From a virus (lineage: Duplodnaviria; Caudoviricetes), in the IMG/VR virus record IMGVR_UViG_3300020440_001565, positions 9,619-73,618 of that record: 64,000 bases of DNA; one strand, given 5' to 3'. How positions within the stretch are numbered: position 1 is the stretch's first letter; the number at the start of each line of letters is the position of its first letter. Below the pieces are notes generated by a model. The model saw only the letters and a list, made by a program, of their open reading frames with translations. It had not been told where the DNA came from and made no database searches. The position numbers and the translations under genes were made by a program. Below are positions 9,155 through 48,207 of this stretch, one piece after another.

Positions 9155-11896
9155 TTATGCCATTTCAAATAAGTTTCCAAATACTGTTGTTTCTGTTTTG
9201 GTTTTGGATAAATCCCAACCCATTACACCAATCATATTTGATACTTTTTGATCAATAATTGTTTGTTCCATTGCTTCATGATCAAACGGCAATTCTTTAA
9301 ACCAACTTGGAATATTCAATTCATCAATTGGATAAGCTACTGATGTATATCCCATTGGATTATCTCTCAGTTTACATACAATCACTTTCTGTCCATCATT
9401 AATAGGCAACGAATAGTGATCCTTATGTGCTGATCTTAATGTGTTCCAATTCATAGATGCTCTTACGTGTCCTGGCAAATTCACCTTATTTGATTGTGCT
9501 TTACCATCTGACATTTCTAGAGTAAATTCTTTTTCAAACTGTCTTTTCACTTTTTTATTCATGTCATCAATCTTATTGTAATACATTGTCAAGTTGTTTA
9601 CTCTTTTTGGAGTACCCTTTTCCCAACCTGGCTTTTCAGTAAACTCTTCTTTGAAAGATGTAATTGCTTGTAGAATATCTTCTTTTGTTCCGCCGATCAA
9701 TACCATTCTTAATAGTGTTGACAAAAACTTCTGCATAAATTCTGGAGTATCAGATCTTTTAATGTCAATACCCATAATTTTAACTTTGCCTTCATTTTCA
9801 ACATCTTTGCGAACACCTTCTTCATCATACACAAGAATAGCATATCTTTTCTTTGTAATGAATAGTCCACTTGACCCAACTACTTCTCTACCACCAACAA
9901 TTATTTCACCTTTTTGCTGTGATGTTTGAAATGCTTTTTTCATGAAAGATGGAAAAGACTTGTTTACTTCTTCTGCTATAGTGTCATACAAATCAACTAC
10001 AGACTCTTTGTTCCATTCTATTTCACTATTTTCAACTTGTTCTTTCACCATTGGCCATGCTGAGAAATAAACAGAGTCAGTATCACCATATATAATACCC
10101 TTGCCTCTATAGTCATATTCACCTGCGACAACTTCGTTTGTTTTAGACGCCATATGTTTTGTAATTGCTCGACCTGTTAGTGTTACTGACTGCCCAATTC
10201 TCATATCAAAGAATCTACAACCAGGATTTAATATCGCACCATACAAACTGTTCAAGTTAATCTTTTTCACAAGCTGTCTTTTATCCCAGAAAGCTCTTTC
10301 TTCTGGATCTGTTTGTTCACGCATTGTAGCCTGCATAACTTTTCTTTGTGCATACCAACTTTCAAGTAATCCTGGAACAATACCTTCGATGTCTGTTCTG
10401 AACAAAGTACCGTTGGCACTTAAACACCAGTTCTTTCCTGAATTAAAGATCACTTCATATAGTTCTGCACCGGACATAACTTCTGTTTGTCCATTTTCAA
10501 AATCAACTGTAATTTCTGTTCCTTTGTCTTTTGCCATTACTGCCGTATATTCTAAACTACCAAAAATACCTTCCCAAGCATCTGCGGGCGATTTCTTTTC
10601 ATTGTTTATTTTGTTGCTAATATATCTTGTAGTGTGATCTTGTCTTAACTGTCCAATAATAGTTTCTGGTCCCATATTCAAAGATCTAATAACTGATGGA
10701 TATAGAGAATTAATATCTATAGATCCTATCCATTCATGTTTACCTTTTTTAGGATATGCCACATAGGCTCCTACTGCCGCTGGGTGATTATGGCCATTAC
10801 CGTTCTTGCCGTTGCGTTTTCTGTCTGGAACCACTACGCCACGTTTATGTGCTTCATTAATAATTGCCTGCTCAGTAACAGCCACCGCTCCCATTGTAGT
10901 TTGGAGAAGCACCGTGTTGGCATGAGCCAATTCGTTAGCAAGATCTACAAACCTCAATTTCTTATCTAGTCTTTTTAGAATCTCTACGTCCTGTCTATTG
11001 TATGCAATAAACTTTTCAAAGTCATCATTATAAAGTTGCTCAATTGTTCCTTCATATGGAATCTTCTTTTCACCTACTTCATACTCACCAATAGCATCAA
11101 GTCTATATGAATGCATTTCATGATACGTATATTTTCTATAAAGCTCTAAGTAGTCTAAATGTACTCGACCAAATAGGTCATATGTTTCTTGTGTGTTACC
11201 ATATTTGATATATTCTCTTTTACGTGGATATAAGTTCCACAAACAATATCTATTTGTTGACTCTTTACCTAATACCATAGCTGTTCTGTTTACCATGTAC
11301 GGAATATCAAAACCTTCTGAGTTCCAACCACTCAATACATCTGCATCTTTAATAAGATCTAAAAATGTACTAATAAGTTGTGCTTCAGAATCACATAACA
11401 TTGTATCTTCAAATCTTTCTACAATACTTTGTGCTTCTTCTTTAGACATAGCTTTAGGTTTAATTACTAATGTTACTAGACTATCAAGCCAATCTAAATA
11501 TACTGTAATACCTGTAACAGGTTGGTGTGGATCATCTGGTTTTGCGAAACCTAGCTTTGGATCAAAGTCAACCTCAATATCAAATAATGCTAAATGCAAT
11601 TTAGGAGCATTTACATCTAGATAGTTTTTTTCTAAACTTCTAAAGATAGGGTTGATATCTGATTCATGCAATTTCTGATTACTGTGAATCTTTAGTTCTC
11701 GTTGGAACTCTTTTCTTCTTTTAGTTGCAAATCTGCTCAACCTGTGCCCAAGCATAGACTTATATTGACCATGTGGATCGTTGTAGTAAAAGAGATACTC
11801 AACAGGATAGTTTACGTAATTCCTTTTACCATTTACTCGTTCAACAATATTAACCTGATCTTTTTCTCTATCTAAATATGCGTCAACATAACTCAT
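9155..11896 (-). CDS. Family B DNA polymerase
   Basis: FDIEVD exonuclease motif, DINSLYPS, KINLNSLYG, YGDTDS. Confidence 0.98.
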   Translation of the reverse strand: MSYVDAYLDREKDQVNIVERVNGKRNYVNYPVEYLFYYNDPHGQYKSMLGHRLSRFATKRRKEFQRELKIHSNQKLHESDINPIFRSLEKNYLDVNAPKLHLALFDIEVDFDPKLGFAKPDDPHQPVTGITVYLDWLDSLVTLVIKPKAMSKEEAQSIVERFEDTMLCDSEAQLISTFLDLIKDADVLSGWNSEGFDIPYMVNRTAMVLGKESTNRYCLWNLYPRKREYIKYGNTQETYDLFGRVHLDYLELYRKYTYHEMHSYRLDAIGEYEVGEKKIPYEGTIEQLYNDDFEKFIAYNRQDVEILKRLDKKLRFVDLANELAHANTVLLQTTMGAVAVTEQAIINEAHKRGVVVPDRKRNGKNGNGHNHPAAVGAYVAYPKKGKHEWIGSIDINSLYPSVIRSLNMGPETIIGQLRQDHTTRYISNKINNEKKSPADAWEGIFGSLEYTAVMAKDKGTEITVDFENGQTEVMSGAELYEVIFNSGKNWCLSANGTLFRTDIEGIVPGLLESWYAQRKVMQATMREQTDPEERAFWDKRQLVKKINLNSLYGAILNPGCRFFDMRIGQSVTLTGRAITKHMASKTNEVVAGEYDYRGKGIIYGDTDSVYFSAWPMVKEQVENSEIEWNKESVVDLYDTIAEEVNKSFPSFMKKAFQTSQQKGEIIVGGREVVGSSGLFITKKRYAILVYDEEGVRKDVENEGKVKIMGIDIKRSDTPEFMQKFLSTLLRMVLIGGTKEDILQAITSFKEEFTEKPGWEKGTPKRVNNLTMYYNKIDDMNKKVKRQFEKEFTLEMSDGKAQSNKVNLPGHVRASMNWNTLRSAHKDHYSLPINDGQKVIVCKLRDNPMGYTSVAYPIDELNIPSWFKELPFDHEAMEQTIIDQKVSNMIGVMGWDLSKTKTETTVFGNLFEMA

Positions 11897-39945: not shown

Positions 39946-40269
39946 TTATACCGCGAAAGATTCACCGCAACCACATGATGAAGTTGCATTAGGATTTCTA
40001 ATTTGAAAACTTGAGCCTACTATTTCGTTTACATAATCAATCGTGGTACCTGCTACAAATAGTACACTTTGGGAATCTACTGCAAACTGTCCTTGTGGAA
40101 ATTCAATAACTTCATCTTTGTCTGTAAGTTCATTTTCAAGTTCCCACTTGTACTGATAACCAGCACAACCGCCACCTTTCACACGAAGGCGAACAGCCGA
40201 TACGTTATTTTCTTGGCATAGTTTTGCTATCTGCTCTTTGGCAGACTCAGTTAATGTAAACAAGCTCAT
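39946..40269 (-). CDS. Fe-S cluster assembly accessory protein (IscA/HesB family)
   Basis: VKGGGCAGYQY; NPNATSSCGCGESF. Confidence 0.95.
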   Translation of the reverse strand: MSLFTLTESAKEQIAKLCQENNVSAVRLRVKGGGCAGYQYKWELENELTDKDEVIEFPQGQFAVDSQSVLFVAGTTIDYVNEIVGSSFQIRNPNATSSCGCGESFAV

Positions 40270-40286
40270 ACAATTATTTACCTAAA

Positions 40287-40907
40287 TTATTGCTTTATTT
40301 TAACATCTATTATTTGTTTTCGCAAGTCTAAAATACGTTTGTTTTTCCTTTTATTTCTTCTATTTCTTGCTTTTGATGTTTGGCTGAGTAGCCTGTCATG
40401 TTTGGTTAATTGTCTATTTTGGTCGTTAAACCATCTTACATATTGGATAGCTTTTGTTTTGGCTGTTCCATTTTTCTTATAATCAACGTCAACTGGTGTA
40501 AAACTTGGATCTATATGACTAACTTTCTTTAGTTTAATATAGTAATTTCCTTTGTGAGCTATTATATCTTTTCCAATTTTTACATTGTAATCTAAGCAAT
40601 CGTCATCTACTTGTACTACAGGAACAGTACCTTCTGGAAACTCGTCAGGCCAGAAGTATCTAGGAAAATAGCTTTTATACCCATCCCAAGATATTGTTTC
40701 GGTTTTGTCTGCTTCAACTTCCCAAGCCATGAAATAACCCGTGGTACCTCTATTAGTACCACGAGCTACTACTAATTCATCGCCATGAACATTTAGACGA
40801 CCCGAACGCCAAACTGTGTGACTTATATCACAATCAGCCTTATATCTCGTTGTTGCCTTCTTTTCTTCGATCTTAACAAATCTTCTTTTGTCTGTTATCC
40901 CGACCAT
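40287..40907 (-). CDS. Hypothetical protein
   Basis: 206 aa ORF with basic C-terminus. Confidence 0.65.
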   Translation of the reverse strand: MVGITDKRRFVKIEEKKATTRYKADCDISHTVWRSGRLNVHGDELVVARGTNRGTTGYFMAWEVEADKTETISWDGYKSYFPRYFWPDEFPEGTVPVVQVDDDCLDYNVKIGKDIIAHKGNYYIKLKKVSHIDPSFTPVDVDYKKNGTAKTKAIQYVRWFNDQNRQLTKHDRLLSQTSKARNRRNKRKNKRILDLRKQIIDVKIKQ

Positions 40908-40912
40908 TGATA

Positions 40913-41113
40913 TTACTTCGATTCGTTTTTAATGTCTTGTATCTTTTTTCTAAGACCCTTACCAATTTTTGTCATTTCTGACAATGCTTTTCTGGCTCTT
41001 GTACCGGCCGCTTTATTGCCTGAGTCAAAGAACTTTGATACATTTTCTTTATATTCATCAATCTGTAATTCAATTTGCTTTCTTAATCCTTCATCTCTAT
41101 TGTCTTCTGACAT
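40913..41113 (-). CDS. Histone H1-like (Hc1-type) small basic protein
   Basis: GNKAAGTRARKALSEM. Confidence 0.75.
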   Translation of the reverse strand: MSEDNRDEGLRKQIELQIDEYKENVSKFFDSGNKAAGTRARKALSEMTKIGKGLRKKIQDIKNESK

Positions 41114-41139
41114 ATCATATCTCCTTTAAATCGAGTTAT

Positions 41140-41327
41140 CCTTGGAACTTCAACCATGATAGATGATCAATAAATCATACCTCCATCCCAAGGACCACTC
41201 TTATACATATCTAATACCAGGTATGTAAGCCGGAGTGAGTATCCGCTCATGGTATCAGTCCATGTGCGTGGGTCTACACCAATATACCACTTCGCCCGCC
41301 TGTGGGTGAGCTGACCGATAAACGGCT
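41140..41327 (-). ncRNA. Candidate structured ncRNA downstream of hfq
   Basis: Gene-free; roughly 50% GC in the 5' half (hand count); nested stems AGCCG/CGGCT, ATCGGTC/GACTGAT, TGAG/CTCA, TCCTTGGGA/TTCCAAGGA. Confidence 0.45.
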
Positions 41328-41331
41328 ACTA

Positions 41332-41541
41332 TTATTTATTATGATTAGCCTCGTTTGAAACGGGCATAATAGTGGATACGGCGTGTTTATTCACTAATTG
41401 TGTTACATTATCACGTTCTAATAAGAAGCTCTTATCATCGTGTTCTGTAATTTTACCAATCAGCTTTATGCCGTTTACTAGGAAGGCTGTAACTTCTTTT
41501 TTCTCTGCTATTATTTTTTCGAAAAATGCTTGTTGTGTCAT
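41332..41541 (-). CDS. hfq: Hfq-like RNA chaperone
   Basis: Sm1 VTAFLVNGIKLIGKI; Sm2 QLVNKHAVSTIMP. Confidence 0.88.
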   Translation of the reverse strand: MTQQAFFEKIIAEKKEVTAFLVNGIKLIGKITEHDDKSFLLERDNVTQLVNKHAVSTIMPVSNEANHNK

Positions 41542-41578
41542 TATGTAAAAATCCTGTTATTATATTTATTTATCCAGG

Positions 41579-41586
41579 TATTTATA
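41579..41586 (-). promoter_or_regulatory. Late promoter TATAAATA upstream of hfq
   Basis: Exact motif. Confidence 0.6.
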
Positions 41587-41618
41587 CTTTAGTTCTTGTG
41601 GATATTCCACTAGGTTCA

Positions 41619-41903
41619 TTAGTCCGAACACAATCTCTTTGCAAACTGTAGTTTCTGGTATGCTTCTTCAACAATAGGATACCTTCTACGAAGATATTGC
41701 TCGTTCTTCTTTTGCCTCTCCCATTTGCGAAGTTTTCTTATCTGTGTCATATATGCTCCCGGAACAGGTGCTGAAGGTAAGTGATATTCTCCTCTATCAA
41801 ATAAATCTTTTTGTGCAGGATCTTTGAAAGAACCTTGATTGCTTTGTAGTTGAGATTTTAATTTTTTGATTTCTTCTTTTAGATCGTTTATCTCATCTTG
41901 CAT
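41619..41903 (-). CDS. Hypothetical protein
   Basis: 94 aa ORF. Confidence 0.6.
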   Translation of the reverse strand: MQDEINDLKEEIKKLKSQLQSNQGSFKDPAQKDLFDRGEYHLPSAPVPGAYMTQIRKLRKWERQKKNEQYLRRRYPIVEEAYQKLQFAKRLCSD

Positions 41904-42352
41904 TAGTTTCTCCTCATCTGCGAAATTTCAGTTGCCGCTTTTGAACCGTCTTTGTCATTTTCATCTGCAAATACTGGTACTAGATTGCTTTTATGCATCA
42001 TAGCAATACCAACTAGTTTACGTTCACCTGTGTATTGCATTGCAGGTCTTTTAGTAGCCGTACCAATACCGCTTGTTGAATTACTACTAGGGATATGCGG
42101 TATTTCTTTGCGATGGTTTGAATCTACATGATGCCACGGAGTACTAATGGCACGTGGCTCTGTTTTAGGTTTCCAGTTGCCATGTACATATTCAATATAC
42201 TCTGAAAGTTTCATTGTAGGAAGATTATGCTTCTTCCAAAACTTGTTTTGTTCACGCCAACCATCAACATAAAAAACATCAGGCTTTCTTTTGGCTTTCT
42301 TTTTCTTTTTAGTGTTTAAAGTGGTAAGACCACGTTCTAAATGCATAGTCAT
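41903..42352 (-). CDS. Phage hypothetical protein
   Basis: YTGERKLVGIAMMHKSNLVPVF motif. Confidence 0.7.
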   Translation of the reverse strand: MTMHLERGLTTLNTKKKKKAKRKPDVFYVDGWREQNKFWKKHNLPTMKLSEYIEYVHGNWKPKTEPRAISTPWHHVDSNHRKEIPHIPSSNSTSGIGTATKRPAMQYTGERKLVGIAMMHKSNLVPVFADENDKDGSKAATEISQMRRN

Positions 42353-42358
42353 AATATT

Positions 42359-42387
42359 ATTATATTACCTTCCTTAGAATATGTCAA
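42359..42387 (-). promoter_or_regulatory. sigma70-type promoter
   Basis: TTGACA-N17-TATAAT. Confidence 0.85.
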
Positions 42388-42524
42388 CGACCTTGTGAAT
42401 TGTAGGCTTTAAAACTTCTTTTTCTGTGTTTGTTCATAGAAGAAAACTTTACTCTTTTTCTTTTACCTTGCGAAGTTCTTTTTTTTACTGTTTCATGTGC
42501 TACGAAATTCTTGTGTAATTTCAT
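42384..42524 (-). CDS. Small highly basic protein (46 aa, not in ORF track)
   Basis: MKLHKNFVAHETVKKRTSQGKRKRVKFSSMNKHRKRSFKAYNSQGR; RBS GGAGG. Confidence 0.65.
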   Translation of the reverse strand: MKLHKNFVAHETVKKRTSQGKRKRVKFSSMNKHRKRSFKAYNSQGR

Positions 42525-42536
42525 AACCCTCCTTGG

Positions 42537-42848
42537 TTACATTTTTATTGTTTCATCTTCATCTTTGTAATCATAAACTGGAAATTCTGCTTTGCCTTTT
42601 GATGGCTCATAGAATCCAACTGCTTTATCATTTTCTAAGATTACCCAATAGTTAACAGGATTTTCTGCTCCAGGCCAACCTTTATGCCCAACCATTCTTT
42701 GTCTAATTTTAACCTTGCTATATTGTTTTGCAGGAATATCTTTTTTCTTATACTTTCCCATATTCCACCACCACTGGAAATCTTCTCCAAGTGTTTCTTC
42801 CATTATTATTGGACGTGGTGTTGATTTTTCATTAAATGGATCTTTCAT
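42537..42848 (-). CDS. Hypothetical protein
   Basis: 103 aa ORF with own sigma70-type promoter. Confidence 0.65.
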   Translation of the reverse strand: MKDPFNEKSTPRPIIMEETLGEDFQWWWNMGKYKKKDIPAKQYSKVKIRQRMVGHKGWPGAENPVNYWVILENDKAVGFYEPSKGKAEFPVYDYKDEDETIKM

Positions 42849-42921
42849 TGAGTACCTCTTTATTTTTATTATTACTGACTATAACATATTTTAGAAATAT
42901 GTCAACTGCTAATTATTAGCA

Positions 42922-43137
42922 GATCATGGGTCATATAAGCCAACCAATCTTATTCCTTCGGTGGGGAGCAAGTCAATTCCATCAACCTTAACGACTTGGC
43001 TCCCCCGGCTGTTAAGGTTGGGTAGTATCTATATTTCGGTCTATGATTCCCTGAGTCCTACCAGACTTGTAAATCCCTGTACTGTAGTTCTTATGGCATC
43101 CAGTACACCAAACCGTTACTTTTGCTATGTCATGATC
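42922..43137 (-). ncRNA. Candidate pseudoknotted ncRNA
   Basis: Own promoter (43162-43189); terminal GATCATG/CATGATC pairing; TGTACTG/CAGTACA stem; 10-bp + 12-bp H-type pseudoknot. Confidence 0.6.
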
Positions 43138-43161
43138 AACTCTCCTACTCTCTATATTTTA

Positions 43162-43189
43162 ATATTAACACAGAAAGCATATCTGTCAA
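43162..43189 (-). promoter_or_regulatory. sigma70-type promoter
   Basis: TTGACA-N16-TAATAT with TGn extended -10. Confidence 0.6.
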
Positions 43190-43205
43190 CCAAAAACTTA
43201 TAGAC

Positions 43206-43213
43206 TATAAATA
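43206..43213 (+). promoter_or_regulatory. Late promoter TATAAATA for plus-strand pair
   Basis: Exact motif upstream of 43308. Confidence 0.65.
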
Positions 43214-43307
43214 TTTGTAGAAATATGAAAGCCCAGAACAAGCTGGGCTCTCAGTAAAGGTTGTATGTCGCCGTTGGGACACTATTACTTATAGGATATT
43301 AAAAATT

Positions 43308-44009
43308 ATGAGCATTGATGGTAAAAATATTAATGAATTAGATAGTGAGACACGTAAGCTTCTCTTTTCAGTAACAAATAGTTTTGATATTCAAAACTTT
43401 AGAATCATAAGAGCTGATATCAAATGGAGAGGTCATCTTGTTGTTGAAGATGGTGATTTTGTATACAAAATAAAAGATGGTAACAGTAATAGAAGATGTT
43501 GGAAACTTGTTAAAGAGTTTTTCGAAAATTGGCATGAACAATATTATGTGTCAACACAATTTCACGAAAACTGGATTTGTGAAAAGTTTAAAAAGTTGCC
43601 AGGACTGGGAGCTGACAGCTATAAAGATTTATCAAATCCTGAGACTGAATTATTTCGAAAAATGATTAACTGGCTTGAGGATGAAATAATAAGGATTGCT
43701 ATCAATGGATCTAAAATGAAAAGCAAAAGATATCCTACACAAGACTACATCTTAACTTGGTTTGATCCTAATATATGGAATATTATATACGATGAAAAAC
43801 AAGATAAGTTTACTCTTATTGACTTTGATCAAATTGATTGGATTGGCTATGATGCTTGGAAGATTGCTGTAACAGATATTATTGCTTATAACTTTGGACT
43901 CGACAAAGTATCAAAAAAACTATTTTCCGATTCTATTCAAAAAAAATTAATATTGGCTATCAACAATGACTTTTCATTGTCTAGCGGAGAAAATAATAAT
44001 GTCAGATAA
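43308..44009 (+). CDS. Kinase-like (APH/choline kinase fold) protein
   Basis: DPNIWNII...FTLIDFD. Confidence 0.55.
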   Translation: MSIDGKNINELDSETRKLLFSVTNSFDIQNFRIIRADIKWRGHLVVEDGDFVYKIKDGNSNRRCWKLVKEFFENWHEQYYVSTQFHENWICEKFKKLPGLGADSYKDLSNPETELFRKMINWLEDEIIRIAINGSKMKSKRYPTQDYILTWFDPNIWNIIYDEKQDKFTLIDFDQIDWIGYDAWKIAVTDIIAYNFGLDKVSKKLFSDSIQKKLILAINNDFSLSSGENNNVR

Positions 44010-44903: not shown

Positions 44904-46007
44904 TTATACAAAATTCTTCCCCCATACACACGTCTTTGCACAAGTGTCTAATCTAGGAGTGTCTGGATCATTTCTGGTGCTGTTAAAAGTCTTGTCTAAA
45001 TAGCTGACAAAGAACTCATGATTGAGTATGTCATCAAATGAATGATAGTGTAGATTGTTAAAATGTTTGCCAAAACGTTTTGTAATGTGTTTCCATTCTT
45101 GTGATATTTTGTCCATGCCAAACAGTTGATTTTTACGTTTATGCATATCACCTGTCCAACAGCACATCCACACAGTACCATCATACTCAACATACATACC
45201 TTTGGAATTGTAATACTGACAAGATATGTTTGCTGTGTCTAAAAAGTCTTTTGGTGCTTCACCTACAATTTTTTTTGCTTCTTGATATCCTTTGCGACCA
45301 TCAATGTGAACAACTACTTCATTGTTCTTTTTTGTTTTTGCACCCATTCCGCCATCTTTGTGTTTGTTAACCGCTTTGGTAAAATTTCTTGCGGCGCCGG
45401 ATCCGGTTGTCAAACCTCTAAAAAATATACTGTTGAATCCTATTTCTTTGGCAATTTGTTTTGCTTCTTCTACTTGATGTTTGTTATGATCAAATACAAT
45501 GTATTGCCAATCTGCATGACCACCTGCATCAATAAAAGCCTTAACATTATTGATCACATTTTCATACTTTGTATTTCTTCTATAAATATGATGGGTATCT
45601 GCAAGTCCATCTATACCAAATATAACACCGTGTGTTATATTTTTCAACACATCACCAACCTTTGTCCAGTATTCTGAGTCAAACATTGCTCCATTGGTTG
45701 AAATATTTAATCTTAAATCTTTATGTGCATGATCAACAATGTATTGACAAATATCTAAAAACTGCGGATGAATACAAGGGTCTCCGAAGTTGCCATTAAA
45801 CAAAATTTTCTGTAAATTATTAGACAGCATTTCAGGAGTAACTGCTTTTTTAATGACATCAAGAGGCATATCCCAACTGTGAGGTTTACCAATAAAAGGG
45901 TTTACGTCTTTGCCGTCTATGTTACGAGCACATTCAAGACACATAGCTTGACACCTTGCTGTGATATCTAGTTGGATCCAATTTAGTTTATTCTTGTTAA
46001 TTTGCAT
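44904..46007 (-). CDS. Radical SAM protein with SPASM/twitch domain
   Basis: CQAMCLEC, GNFGDP, GTVWMCCW, CAKTC. Confidence 0.9.
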   Translation of the reverse strand: MQINKNKLNWIQLDITARCQAMCLECARNIDGKDVNPFIGKPHSWDMPLDVIKKAVTPEMLSNNLQKILFNGNFGDPCIHPQFLDICQYIVDHAHKDLRLNISTNGAMFDSEYWTKVGDVLKNITHGVIFGIDGLADTHHIYRRNTKYENVINNVKAFIDAGGHADWQYIVFDHNKHQVEEAKQIAKEIGFNSIFFRGLTTGSGAARNFTKAVNKHKDGGMGAKTKKNNEVVVHIDGRKGYQEAKKIVGEAPKDFLDTANISCQYYNSKGMYVEYDGTVWMCCWTGDMHKRKNQLFGMDKISQEWKHITKRFGKHFNNLHYHSFDDILNHEFFVSYLDKTFNSTRNDPDTPRLDTCAKTCVWGKNFV

Positions 46008-46013
46008 CTCTAG

Positions 46014-46021
46014 TATTTATA
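46014..46021 (-). promoter_or_regulatory. Late promoter TATAAATA
   Basis: Exact motif 6 nt upstream of the ATG at 46007. Confidence 0.65.
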
Positions 46022-46091: not shown

Positions 46092-46781
46092 TTAAAGATT
46101 TTTCTTAGAAAAATTAGCTTTGCCGGTTTTTGTTGTTGAAGTTGGCTTAGGTGGATTTGCATTTGGATCAGCAGGATCAACTGTGATACCTCCACCATCA
46201 ACGTCTGGATCTACATCAACATCTTTTCTGGTACCACCAAGTGTTTGTTTGTTCCAATTATCTACTGTTTGTCTCATATCGTTTTCTAAATCTTTTCTTG
46301 GATATGGCTGACCACTTTGGAACTTAGGCATAATCTTTGCAGGAACATAATCCCAAAATCCTAAATTCTTTAGAGTAAGAACTACGTCTGCCGCTGGTAA
46401 TTGTTTGTTGTAATCCATTGGAACTGCTTTTGGATTACCTTGTGCGTCTTGTCCTTTAACTAAAGGTGGCTTACCTTGATTTGAAGCCATAACTGTGGAA
46501 CTTACTTTCTTAACTAGTGCATCTGTATATTTTTGTAAAGCTGTATTAATTTTATCTGCTTGACCTTGTGCCTGTGCTTGTCTGTAGTTTGCACCAAAGT
46601 TTTTTACCGCAGATTTGGCTAATGTGCCTAATCTTTGATTAGCAAAACGATCAGTATCTGGTCCACCTGTACCTACTTGTTTGTACTGTTGTCTTGCTTG
46701 ACTTATAGTTCTAGCTGTTCCGCCTACTATATTTCTAGCAAAGTTAATTGGACCTTCATTTGTAACCTCTTTTATTTTCAT
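46092..46781 (-). CDS. Hypothetical late protein
   Basis: 229 aa; TATAAATA at 46787-46794. Confidence 0.7.
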   Translation of the reverse strand: MKIKEVTNEGPINFARNIVGGTARTISQARQQYKQVGTGGPDTDRFANQRLGTLAKSAVKNFGANYRQAQAQGQADKINTALQKYTDALVKKVSSTVMASNQGKPPLVKGQDAQGNPKAVPMDYNKQLPAADVVLTLKNLGFWDYVPAKIMPKFQSGQPYPRKDLENDMRQTVDNWNKQTLGGTRKDVDVDPDVDGGGITVDPADPNANPPKPTSTTKTGKANFSKKNL

Positions 46782-46796
46782 ACTAGTATTTATATC

Positions 46797-48132: not shown

Positions 48133-48207
48133 TGGAGCGGGTAATGGGGTTCGAACCCATGACCTTCTCGTTGGCAACGAGACGCTCTACCACTGAGCTA
48201 CACCCGC
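48133..48207 (-). tRNA. tRNA-Gly(GCC)
   Basis: GCGGGTGTAGCTCAGTGGTAGAGC...TT-GCC-AA...GGTTCGAACCCC...TACCCGCTCCA. Confidence 0.97.

Follow-up and report, generated by a model that had tools for sequence, protein, structure and literature searches.

A Surface-Remodelled Hfq of Giant Marine T4-like Phages Adjoins an Uncatalogued Family of Structured RNA

Introduction

Many bacteria have Hfq as their central RNA chaperone, yet a virus-encoded Hfq is essentially undescribed. In this work, we analyzed an hfq gene, and the structured RNA that directly follows it, in a stretch of 64,000 nucleotides (nt) of viral DNA (hereafter, the window), taken from the 73.6-kb IMG/VR virus record IMGVR_UViG_3300020440_001565 (positions 9,619 to 73,618; CheckV completeness of the record 20%). 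A full-text literature search found no paper on a phage-encoded Hfq. A detectable Hfq homologue occurs in just 5 of 50,697 deposited phage records, and most of these five look like bacterial contigs.

The systems closest to this locus come from phages as well as from bacteria. T4-type phages have structured leaders and operators, among them the pseudoknot operator of gene 32 and the alternative early and late transcripts of gene e and I-TevI. In Chlamydia, the small RNA (sRNA) IhtA reportedly acts in trans and pairs with the start region of hctA, which encodes the histone-like protein Hc1.

In the cellular Hfq proteins, the proximal uridine pocket is formed by Gln8, Phe42, Lys56 and His57 (PMC5379935), and F42 and F39 have been described as the pore and the edge of the proximal face (PMC3936774). 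The recognition of polyuridine by this face is strongly conserved among Hfq proteins, and annealing activity tracks the number of arginines on the rim (PMC6561178). The basic rim of Caulobacter Hfq is composed of R18, K19, K21, R49 and R50 (PMC6561178). The Hfq proteins of B. subtilis and S. aureus have a weak arginine patch, with few or no rim arginines, and show little or no annealing (PMC6561178, PMC10628458).

Results and Discussion

The hfq Gene and the Fold of Its Product

The features of the locus, in window coordinates and in the order of transcription, are as follows (L088 is a sister strain, about 94% identical overall to the window):

41579–41586, minus strand: T4-type late-promoter box TATAAATA, exact match, 37 nt before the hfq ATG
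41332–41541, minus strand: hfq, encoding an Hfq/Sm core of 69 amino acids (aa), identified with Pfam, PDB, AlphaFold2 and Foldseek
41331–41340, minus strand: promoter-like box AATAAATAAT, which overlaps the stop codon of hfq and may be the start signal of the intergenic RNA
41201–41331, minus strand: 5′ domain of the intergenic RNA, GC-rich (44% GC) and lineage-specific; 96% identical to L088
41133–41200, minus strand: conserved 68-nt hairpin, identified by covariation, minimum free energy (MFE) and a covariance model
41121–41126, minus strand: Shine–Dalgarno (SD) sequence AAGGAG of hc1, 6 nt after the hairpin base
40913–41113, minus strand: hc1, Hc1-like histone H1-type gene, 66 aa (Pfam PF07432, 58.9 bits, cut-off 23.5)

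hfq is a genuine phage gene. Its translation, which includes ...QLVNKHAVSTIMP..., matches the Pfam family PF17209 over residues 3–63 of 69 with 62.1 bits (cut-off 27), and 35 Hfq sequences of the PDB match it at E ≤ 1e-3, the best being Caulobacter Hfq (6gwk, E 3e-11). The AlphaFold2 model, calculated for a single chain from a 47-row alignment, has a predicted local distance difference test score (pLDDT) of 91.3 and consists of a helix (residues 3–13) and five strands, which corresponds to the Sm fold. Foldseek superimposed it on 6gwk with a TM-score of 0.85 and a root-mean-square deviation (rmsd) of 0.8 Å. The profile and the single-chain model thus bear out the original prediction of a 69-aa Hfq, and the absence of a C-terminal tail, also proposed there, was confirmed: the protein terminates 9 residues past Pro60 of the core. 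Between the window and L088, hfq has 8 nucleotide differences, all 8 of them synonymous, and the protein is 100% identical, which indicates that the gene is under purifying selection.

The phage protein has the Hfq/Sm fold and is most like alphaproteobacterial Hfq. With the protein of Caulobacter crescentus (6gwk; PMC6561178) it shares, besides this fold, 47% identity, a core of the same length with one extra residue inserted ahead of strand 4, an F in place of Y25, the STIMP ending and identical distal-face residues. Unlike the Caulobacter protein, it has no acidic C-terminal tail, it is phage-borne and fast-evolving, and its gene is preceded by a late-promoter box; rim residues R18/K19/R49 are replaced by I/A/E, F39/F42 read H/K in the window, and within the clade Q8 is changed to E and H57 to D or N.

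When placed in a tree together with 85 cellular sequences, the Hfqs of the phages grouped together (support 87/52, recovered in 88% of bootstrap trees); this group is divided into two well-supported halves and has very long branches. The closest cellular Hfqs are alphaproteobacterial (53–60% identity), and the identity to any cellular Hfq is about 45–60%. The donor of the phage gene is not established by this tree because the search patterns steered the sampling of cellular sequences. Three short Hfqs labelled as cellular, from contigs of alphaproteobacterial metagenome-assembled genomes (L178–L180), branch closest to the phage clade. They have phage-like substitutions, namely, E at the F42 position, H or Q at F39 and, in L179, YKN. 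These proteins may be either intermediates or mis-binned phage DNA.

RNA-Binding Surfaces of the Phage Hfq

The binding surfaces were compared column by column in 15 phage and 32 cellular Hfq sequences. Judging from this alignment, neither the proximal uridine pocket nor the basic rim has been retained in the phage clade, while the distal residues that bind A-rich RNA are intact. Q8, kept in 32/32 cellular proteins, is replaced by E in 14/15 phage proteins; position 42, which carries F or Y in 29/32 cellular sequences, is aromatic in none of the 15 phage sequences (K in the window); and H57, present in 31/32 cellular sequences, is changed to D or N in 14/15 phage ones. F39 is never F in the phage Hfqs. 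In the window protein, the pocket reads Q, K, K, H at positions 8/42/56/57, with F42 and Y55 lost. The Sm2 motif reads NKHAVST there (Y55 to N), as had been noted in the original prediction, and YKDAVST or YKNAIST (H57 to D or N) in the relatives, with K56, A, S and T invariant across the phage clade. The label "distal" that had been given to the corresponding YKHAIST motif is incorrect, since K56 and H57 line the proximal uridine pocket (PMC5379935).

On the rim, the window has I, A, K, E and R at the positions of R18, K19, K21, R49 and R50. Of these positions, that of R50 alone carries a basic residue in the whole phage clade; one K at R49 apart, no basic residue occurs in the clade at the equivalents of R16 and Caulobacter R49. 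In the A-R-N site of the distal face, F25, G29, K31, Q52 and T61 are invariant and position 30 is I or V in all the phage and cellular sequences compared; Q33 is lost in the phage proteins. With the distal residues kept and the pocket and rim lost, the phage Hfq should bind A-rich RNA and should be poor both at holding the 3′ tails of sRNAs and at matchmaking. In having few or no rim arginines and a likely role in RNA binding rather than matchmaking, it resembles the Hfq proteins of Gram-positive bacteria; these, however, keep the proximal Q8/F(Y)42/K56/H57 pocket, which the phage clade is without.

Conserved Structured RNA Directly after hfq

Searches of viral contigs and metagenomes with Hfq, Hc1 and the product of the neighboring gene p206 as queries gave about 20 related loci, roughly 16 of them distinct, and the synteny hfq/gap/hc1/p206/iscA is common to all of these loci. 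In every relative found, hfq is directly followed by a conserved, strand-specific, structured RNA. In the window, the gap between hfq and hc1 (41114–41331) is 218 nt long, with 44% GC compared to about 34% locally, and contains no open reading frame (ORF) of at least 30 aa on the gene strand. Thus, both the GC-enriched non-coding segment that had been described after hfq and the structured RNA that had been placed directly downstream of the gene are real. Across the relatives, the gap measures 134–309 nt and is somewhat GC-enriched. The whole gap diverges from L088 by 3.3%, compared to 7.7% at third codon positions (p = 0.023).

The 3′ part of this RNA is the conserved, irregular hairpin, which has an MFE of −25.4 kcal/mol (z −4.1) in the window and comprises about 21–24 bp in three stacked stems. 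It is built of P0 (4 bp, GAGU/ACUC), an interruption, P1, an inner stem S1 and an apical loop. The interruption between P0 and P1 is asymmetric and conserved, with GG opposite UA in the alignment. P1 includes about 9 covarying pairs (up to 11 pairs in the MFE fold), and the apical loop is 9–13 nt long (13 nt in the window), with UUGAU in the window and UUGCU in the relatives. In an alignment of 19 sequences, 95.5% of the cells pair, compared to 76% in shuffles and at most 53% with slid partners; 10 of the 14 pairs have compensatory double changes, and none of 500 shuffles reached the observed values. Frequent G-U pairs in the covarying stems indicate that the RNA lies on the hfq strand. A covariance model (R1) was built from the aligned hairpin copies with L091 and L094 held out, and it recovered both of these copies. 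The part of the RNA that lies 5′ of the hairpin is lineage-specific: by sequence, the only counterpart of the window 5′ domain in the relatives, which are of two types (type 1 and type 2), is a UAGUAG motif near the 5′ end, and RNAalifold gave no consensus structure for the type-1 5′ part.

Several other identities of the element were considered and rejected. A known RNA family was rejected on the basis of Rfam: with Rfam 15, there was no match in the window at the gathering score; in the region 40900–43320 at E ≤ 10, nothing overlapped the hfq–hc1 gap, the three weak matches lying elsewhere; and in ten relatives at E ≤ 1, only tRNAs were matched. ARAGORN found no tRNA or tmRNA in the gap. An RNA on the opposite strand was rejected because, in spite of the better plus-strand z in the window, five of five relatives fold better on the gene strand, with which the G-U pairs agree. 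An element tied to hc1 generally was rejected since model R1 had no match in 72 viral loci with Hc1 only, which are devoid of the other genes of the cluster; the model also had none in 24 cellular hfq loci. A generic repeated terminator or an element like the repetitive extragenic palindromic (REP) sequences was rejected because the hairpin occurs just once in each of five phage records, one of which is a complete 328-kb genome. An H-type pseudoknot, GUUGCU/AGCAAU, of the type-1 loci was dropped, as it is not kept in type 2 or in the window and competes with the better-supported inner stem.

The Phage Clade

The window encodes a T4-type family-B DNA polymerase PolB (phrog_262, E 4e-195) and a Clp-type ATPase. 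One of the related loci belongs to the complete 328-kb genome, which has terminal repeats; therefore, the clade is one of giant phages. Within this clade of giant marine T4-like phages, hfq is inherited vertically. No member of the lineage without hfq was found, and p206 queries gave only the same five viral contigs. A nucleotide search of deposited phage genomes gave no match, and 75 other viral loci carrying Hc1 contain no further gene of the hfq cluster. As all known members carry hfq, the RNA and hc1, the linkage of these parts is inseparable from common descent, and the tie of the RNA to hfq is positional only.

Promoter-like Boxes around hfq

The exact TATAAATA that had been reported before hfq was confirmed, and it is kept in L088 despite a 34-nt deletion directly upstream. 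In the window as a whole, this box is not enriched (9 copies, 10.7 expected). Seven of these copies, however, lie between genes and are oriented toward the next one, although the coding share of the window is 89%, which is the behavior of a T4-type late promoter. Two copies, at 46014–46021 and 46787–46794 (both on the minus strand), stand 6–7 nt before the listed ATG of the genes at 44904–46007 and 46092–46781. This is too close for a promoter and a leader with a ribosome-binding site (RBS), so either these starts are misplaced or the messages are leaderless.

A further box is located at the end of the gene: TAAATA occurs within a few bases of the hfq stop codon in 21/21 relatives. The box reads TATAAATA in eight type-2 loci, CTAAATATAAT in the type-1 loci and AATAAATAAT in the window. 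We infer that this TAAATA-type box may be the promoter of the intergenic RNA.

hc1 and the Possible Role of the RNA

The gene that follows the RNA encodes an Hc1-like protein, whose match to the profile covers positions 5–56 of 57; the Lys/Ala-rich C-terminal tail of chlamydial Hc1 is absent. In loci L011–L087, the protein likewise consists of the N-terminal 57-residue Hc1 domain only, and its 386 IMG/VR relatives occur in unrelated gene contexts, which identifies it as a widespread small DNA-binding protein of phages. An SD sequence, AAGGAG or TAGGAG, is conserved ahead of hc1 in the majority of the 21 relatives; for L092 and L122, the listed gap sequences stop short of it. No promoter was found between the hairpin and hc1 in the window, and type 1 is similar. 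For the hairpins of the window, L115 and L004, no canonical intrinsic terminator was predicted; a run of at least four U follows the hairpin in just 12 of the 19 copies, and the GC stem P1 stands 6–7 nt from the U run.

Based on the above results, we favor, with moderate confidence, the reading that the RNA is a late-transcribed leader, or a processed RNA, attached to hc1 and located beside a specialized Hfq that binds A-rich RNA. The hairpin base lies 6 nt from the SD sequence with no promoter between, which fits a structured leader or a processed 5′ or 3′ end of the late hc1 message. This reading is further supported by the TAAATA box at the hfq stop in all 21 loci and by the use of T4-type late boxes in the window. 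The following model can be suggested. The phage Hfq rings would bind A-rich single-stranded RNA, and the protein would function in mRNA binding or in the modulation of translation, and not as a canonical sRNA matchmaker. The RNA would form the structured front of the late hc1 transcript, or else be a stable cleavage product of this transcript, and would tune the stability or translation of the message for the histone-like Hc1. Hfq and the RNA would then be neighbors in one late "nucleic-acid handling" cassette, and they may interact.

Such an arrangement resembles the T4-type leaders and operators in that the phage is T4-like, a late TATAAATA-type box is present, the structured RNA is located just upstream of the RBS of a gene for a nucleic-acid-binding protein, and the type-2 loci have alternative promoters that include or exclude the structure. 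It differs from them in that the RNA has no sequence or Rfam similarity and that the late rather than the early transcript would carry the structure. With the IhtA/hctA pair, it shares a small RNA element linked to the control of an Hc1-type histone-like protein, which is reportedly made late in the developmental cycle. In contrast to IhtA, the phage RNA lies in cis beside hc1, and the phage Hc1 comprises only the 57-residue N-terminal domain. Tested in 13 loci against the start region of hc1, the sole target examined, the RNA paired no better than shuffles did (z −2.0 to +1.2); thus, an IhtA-like antisense mechanism is not supported. The type-1 loop does have CUCC opposite the SD sequence, but type 2 and the window are without it. 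An enrichment of ARN repeats in the hc1 leader was also set aside, because such runs are expected in DNA of 33% GC and the run overlaps a promoter.

It should be noted that several observations weigh against a leader of hc1. In the eight type-2 loci, a conserved sigma-70-like promoter, TTGACT-17-TAAAAT, is located between the hairpin and hc1; hence, hc1 can be made there without the RNA, which in these loci has the look of a separate unit. The box CTAAATATAAT is an 11-mer that occurs once per genome, at the hfq stop, in G002 and G003, so it is unique to the locus and not a recurrent promoter. The fold of the 5′ 129 nt of the gap is no more stable than that of shuffles (z −0.6), and the conservation of UUGCU in the apical loop has no explanation in this model. 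As for the specialized Hfq, the proximal pocket of the window protein is less degraded than those of its relatives, Q8 and H57 being retained.

Alternatively, the RNA could be an independent late sRNA of 130–300 nt, bound by the phage Hfq via a non-canonical surface and regulating phage or host messages. In favor of this, hfq and the RNA are adjacent, with one copy each, in all of the roughly 16 distinct genomes; a conserved promoter-type box stands at the RNA start; the type-2 hc1 promoter starts about 10 nt past the hairpin, so that this is apparently where the RNA unit stops, usually with UUUU; and both the apical loop and the 5′ UAGUAG motif show conservation of the kind that a binding or seed site might have. 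Like the enterobacterial class I/II sRNAs, the RNA is in the appropriate size range, has a promoter-like box, ends in a 3′ hairpin often followed by U residues, and in addition adjoins hfq. Unlike them, it has neither a compact GC hairpin with an adjoining U-tract nor a seed–target match (with the hc1 start tested), and the phage Hfq is without the surfaces that such sRNAs use, namely, the pocket for sRNA 3′ ends and the arginine rim for annealing. The U runs are found in AT-rich DNA, and the co-occurrence of the two parts, with no member lacking either, is inseparable from shared ancestry. We consider an independent sRNA of this kind unlikely. The Hfq-dependent sRNA of the original reading is not supported, given the missing canonical terminator, hc1 pairing excess, proximal pocket and basic rim, and the RNA is probably not a classic Hfq-dependent trans-acting sRNA. 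A related possibility is a dedicated ribonucleoprotein (RNP) of Hfq and the RNA, in which the rebuilt proximal face would read the hairpin or the UUGCU loop rather than U-tails and would time the late synthesis of the DNA-condensing Hc1; at present, it seems decidedly improbable.

A simpler role can also be imagined for the hairpin, which could be a processing or stabilizing site of the RNase III type, or a weak terminator, that keeps the hfq message apart from that of hc1 and shields the ends of both, without regulatory content. The hairpin is located between two co-directional genes, is strand-specific and is often followed by a U-rich stretch. In its size and internal loops, it resembles the RNase III sites of phage T7. 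But the hairpin is present just once even in the complete 328-kb genome, which contains hundreds of gene junctions, and a pure spacer or processing hairpin needs neither the conserved apical loop and the asymmetric interruption between P0 and P1 nor the further 60–230 nt of conserved RNA upstream. Consequently, this role is distinctly unlikely. The original prediction also offered a function for Hfq alone, the poisoning of the host Hfq through mixed hexamers. In such a case, the tail-less phage subunit would enter host rings, and host sRNA regulation would be disabled late in infection by the defective proximal and rim residues of this subunit. The protein does lack the tail, the strands of the subunit interface (TQLV.K, STI.P) are kept while residues of the pocket shared between subunits are lost, and the closest cellular relatives, from Alphaproteobacteria, are 53–60% identical. 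However, the distal-face residues are invariant and purifying selection is strong, which indicates an RNA-binding role of the phage Hfq itself; also, the phage branches are long and the identity to any cellular Hfq is limited. In our opinion, poisoning of the host Hfq is very unlikely. Thus, a leader or processed RNA of hc1, beside an Hfq that binds A-rich RNA, is the reading we retain.

Neighboring Genes and the Second RNA

The remaining features of the block are as follows:

42906–43189, minus strand: second structured RNA, with its own TTGACA-16-TAATAT promoter at 43162–43189
42537–42848, minus strand: p103
Between p103 and p149, minus strand: 46-aa ORF
41903–42352, minus strand: p149
41619–41903, minus strand: p94
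40287–40907, minus strand: p206
39946–40269, minus strand: iscA

The second structured RNA, which had been reported about 1.4 kb from the first, exists, is gene-free and has its own sigma-70-like promoter. It is 98.9% identical to L088, compared to 92.3% at third codon positions, which shows that it is real. It is followed directly by a second promoter (42878–42905) for p103. Neither blastn nor nhmmer found a counterpart of this RNA within 3–4 kb of hfq in relatives other than L088, and the regions upstream of p103 in seven relatives contained no gap like that of the window and no second RNA. Since it lies near hfq only in the sublineage of L088 and the window, the second RNA is a neighbor by chance, outside the hfq module. 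Accordingly, the proposal that the chaperone and both RNAs form one system fails on co-occurrence. Overall, what the original prediction observed at this locus stands, and its interpretation is supported in part: the hfq gene is real and its RNA is conserved, but the sRNA features and the two-RNA system were not confirmed.

Upstream of hfq, p94 is less conserved than any other gene of the block, with 84% nucleotide identity to L088. The 34-nt indel between the window and L088 is located at 41587–41620, in the stretch from the p94 end to the TATAAATA box of hfq. The window has one p94, whereas in the complete 328-kb genome (L008, 2936–3442) two tandem p94 paralogues, which have the motif EQYMRRRYP.V.EAY in common, precede hfq. 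Just upstream of p149, there is a perfect 12/12 sigma-70 consensus promoter, TTGACA-17-TATAAT (42359–42387, minus strand); thus, the block mixes early-type and late-type signals.

Two further observations concern the wider surroundings of the locus. A tRNA-Gly(GCC) is found in the window (48133–48207, minus strand), in L004 (1309–1380) and in L096 (1645–1716) with letter-for-letter the same sequence, unchanged between phages whose proteins share just 40–75% identity. Stand-alone fragments similar to the DnaE N-terminus, with the motif GRGSSVSS, are encoded about 2 kb downstream of hfq in L003 (6033–6539) and L004 (6020–6592).

Conclusions

In the giant marine T4-like phages studied here, a surface-remodelled, virus-borne Hfq adjoins an uncatalogued RNA family. 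The clade is a natural experiment in which the A-rich-binding distal face of Hfq is kept and the uridine pocket, otherwise strongly conserved (PMC6561178), is dismantled, with the protein locked in synteny with a structured RNA and a histone-like gene. If these parts do not interact, the locus still provides a new RNA family and a surface-variant Hfq. If they do interact, it would offer a new binding mode of Hfq and show how giant phages time the compaction of DNA. Should Hfq and the RNA form a dedicated RNP, it would be a virus-owned Hfq–RNA switch with a binding mode not seen in cellular Hfq.

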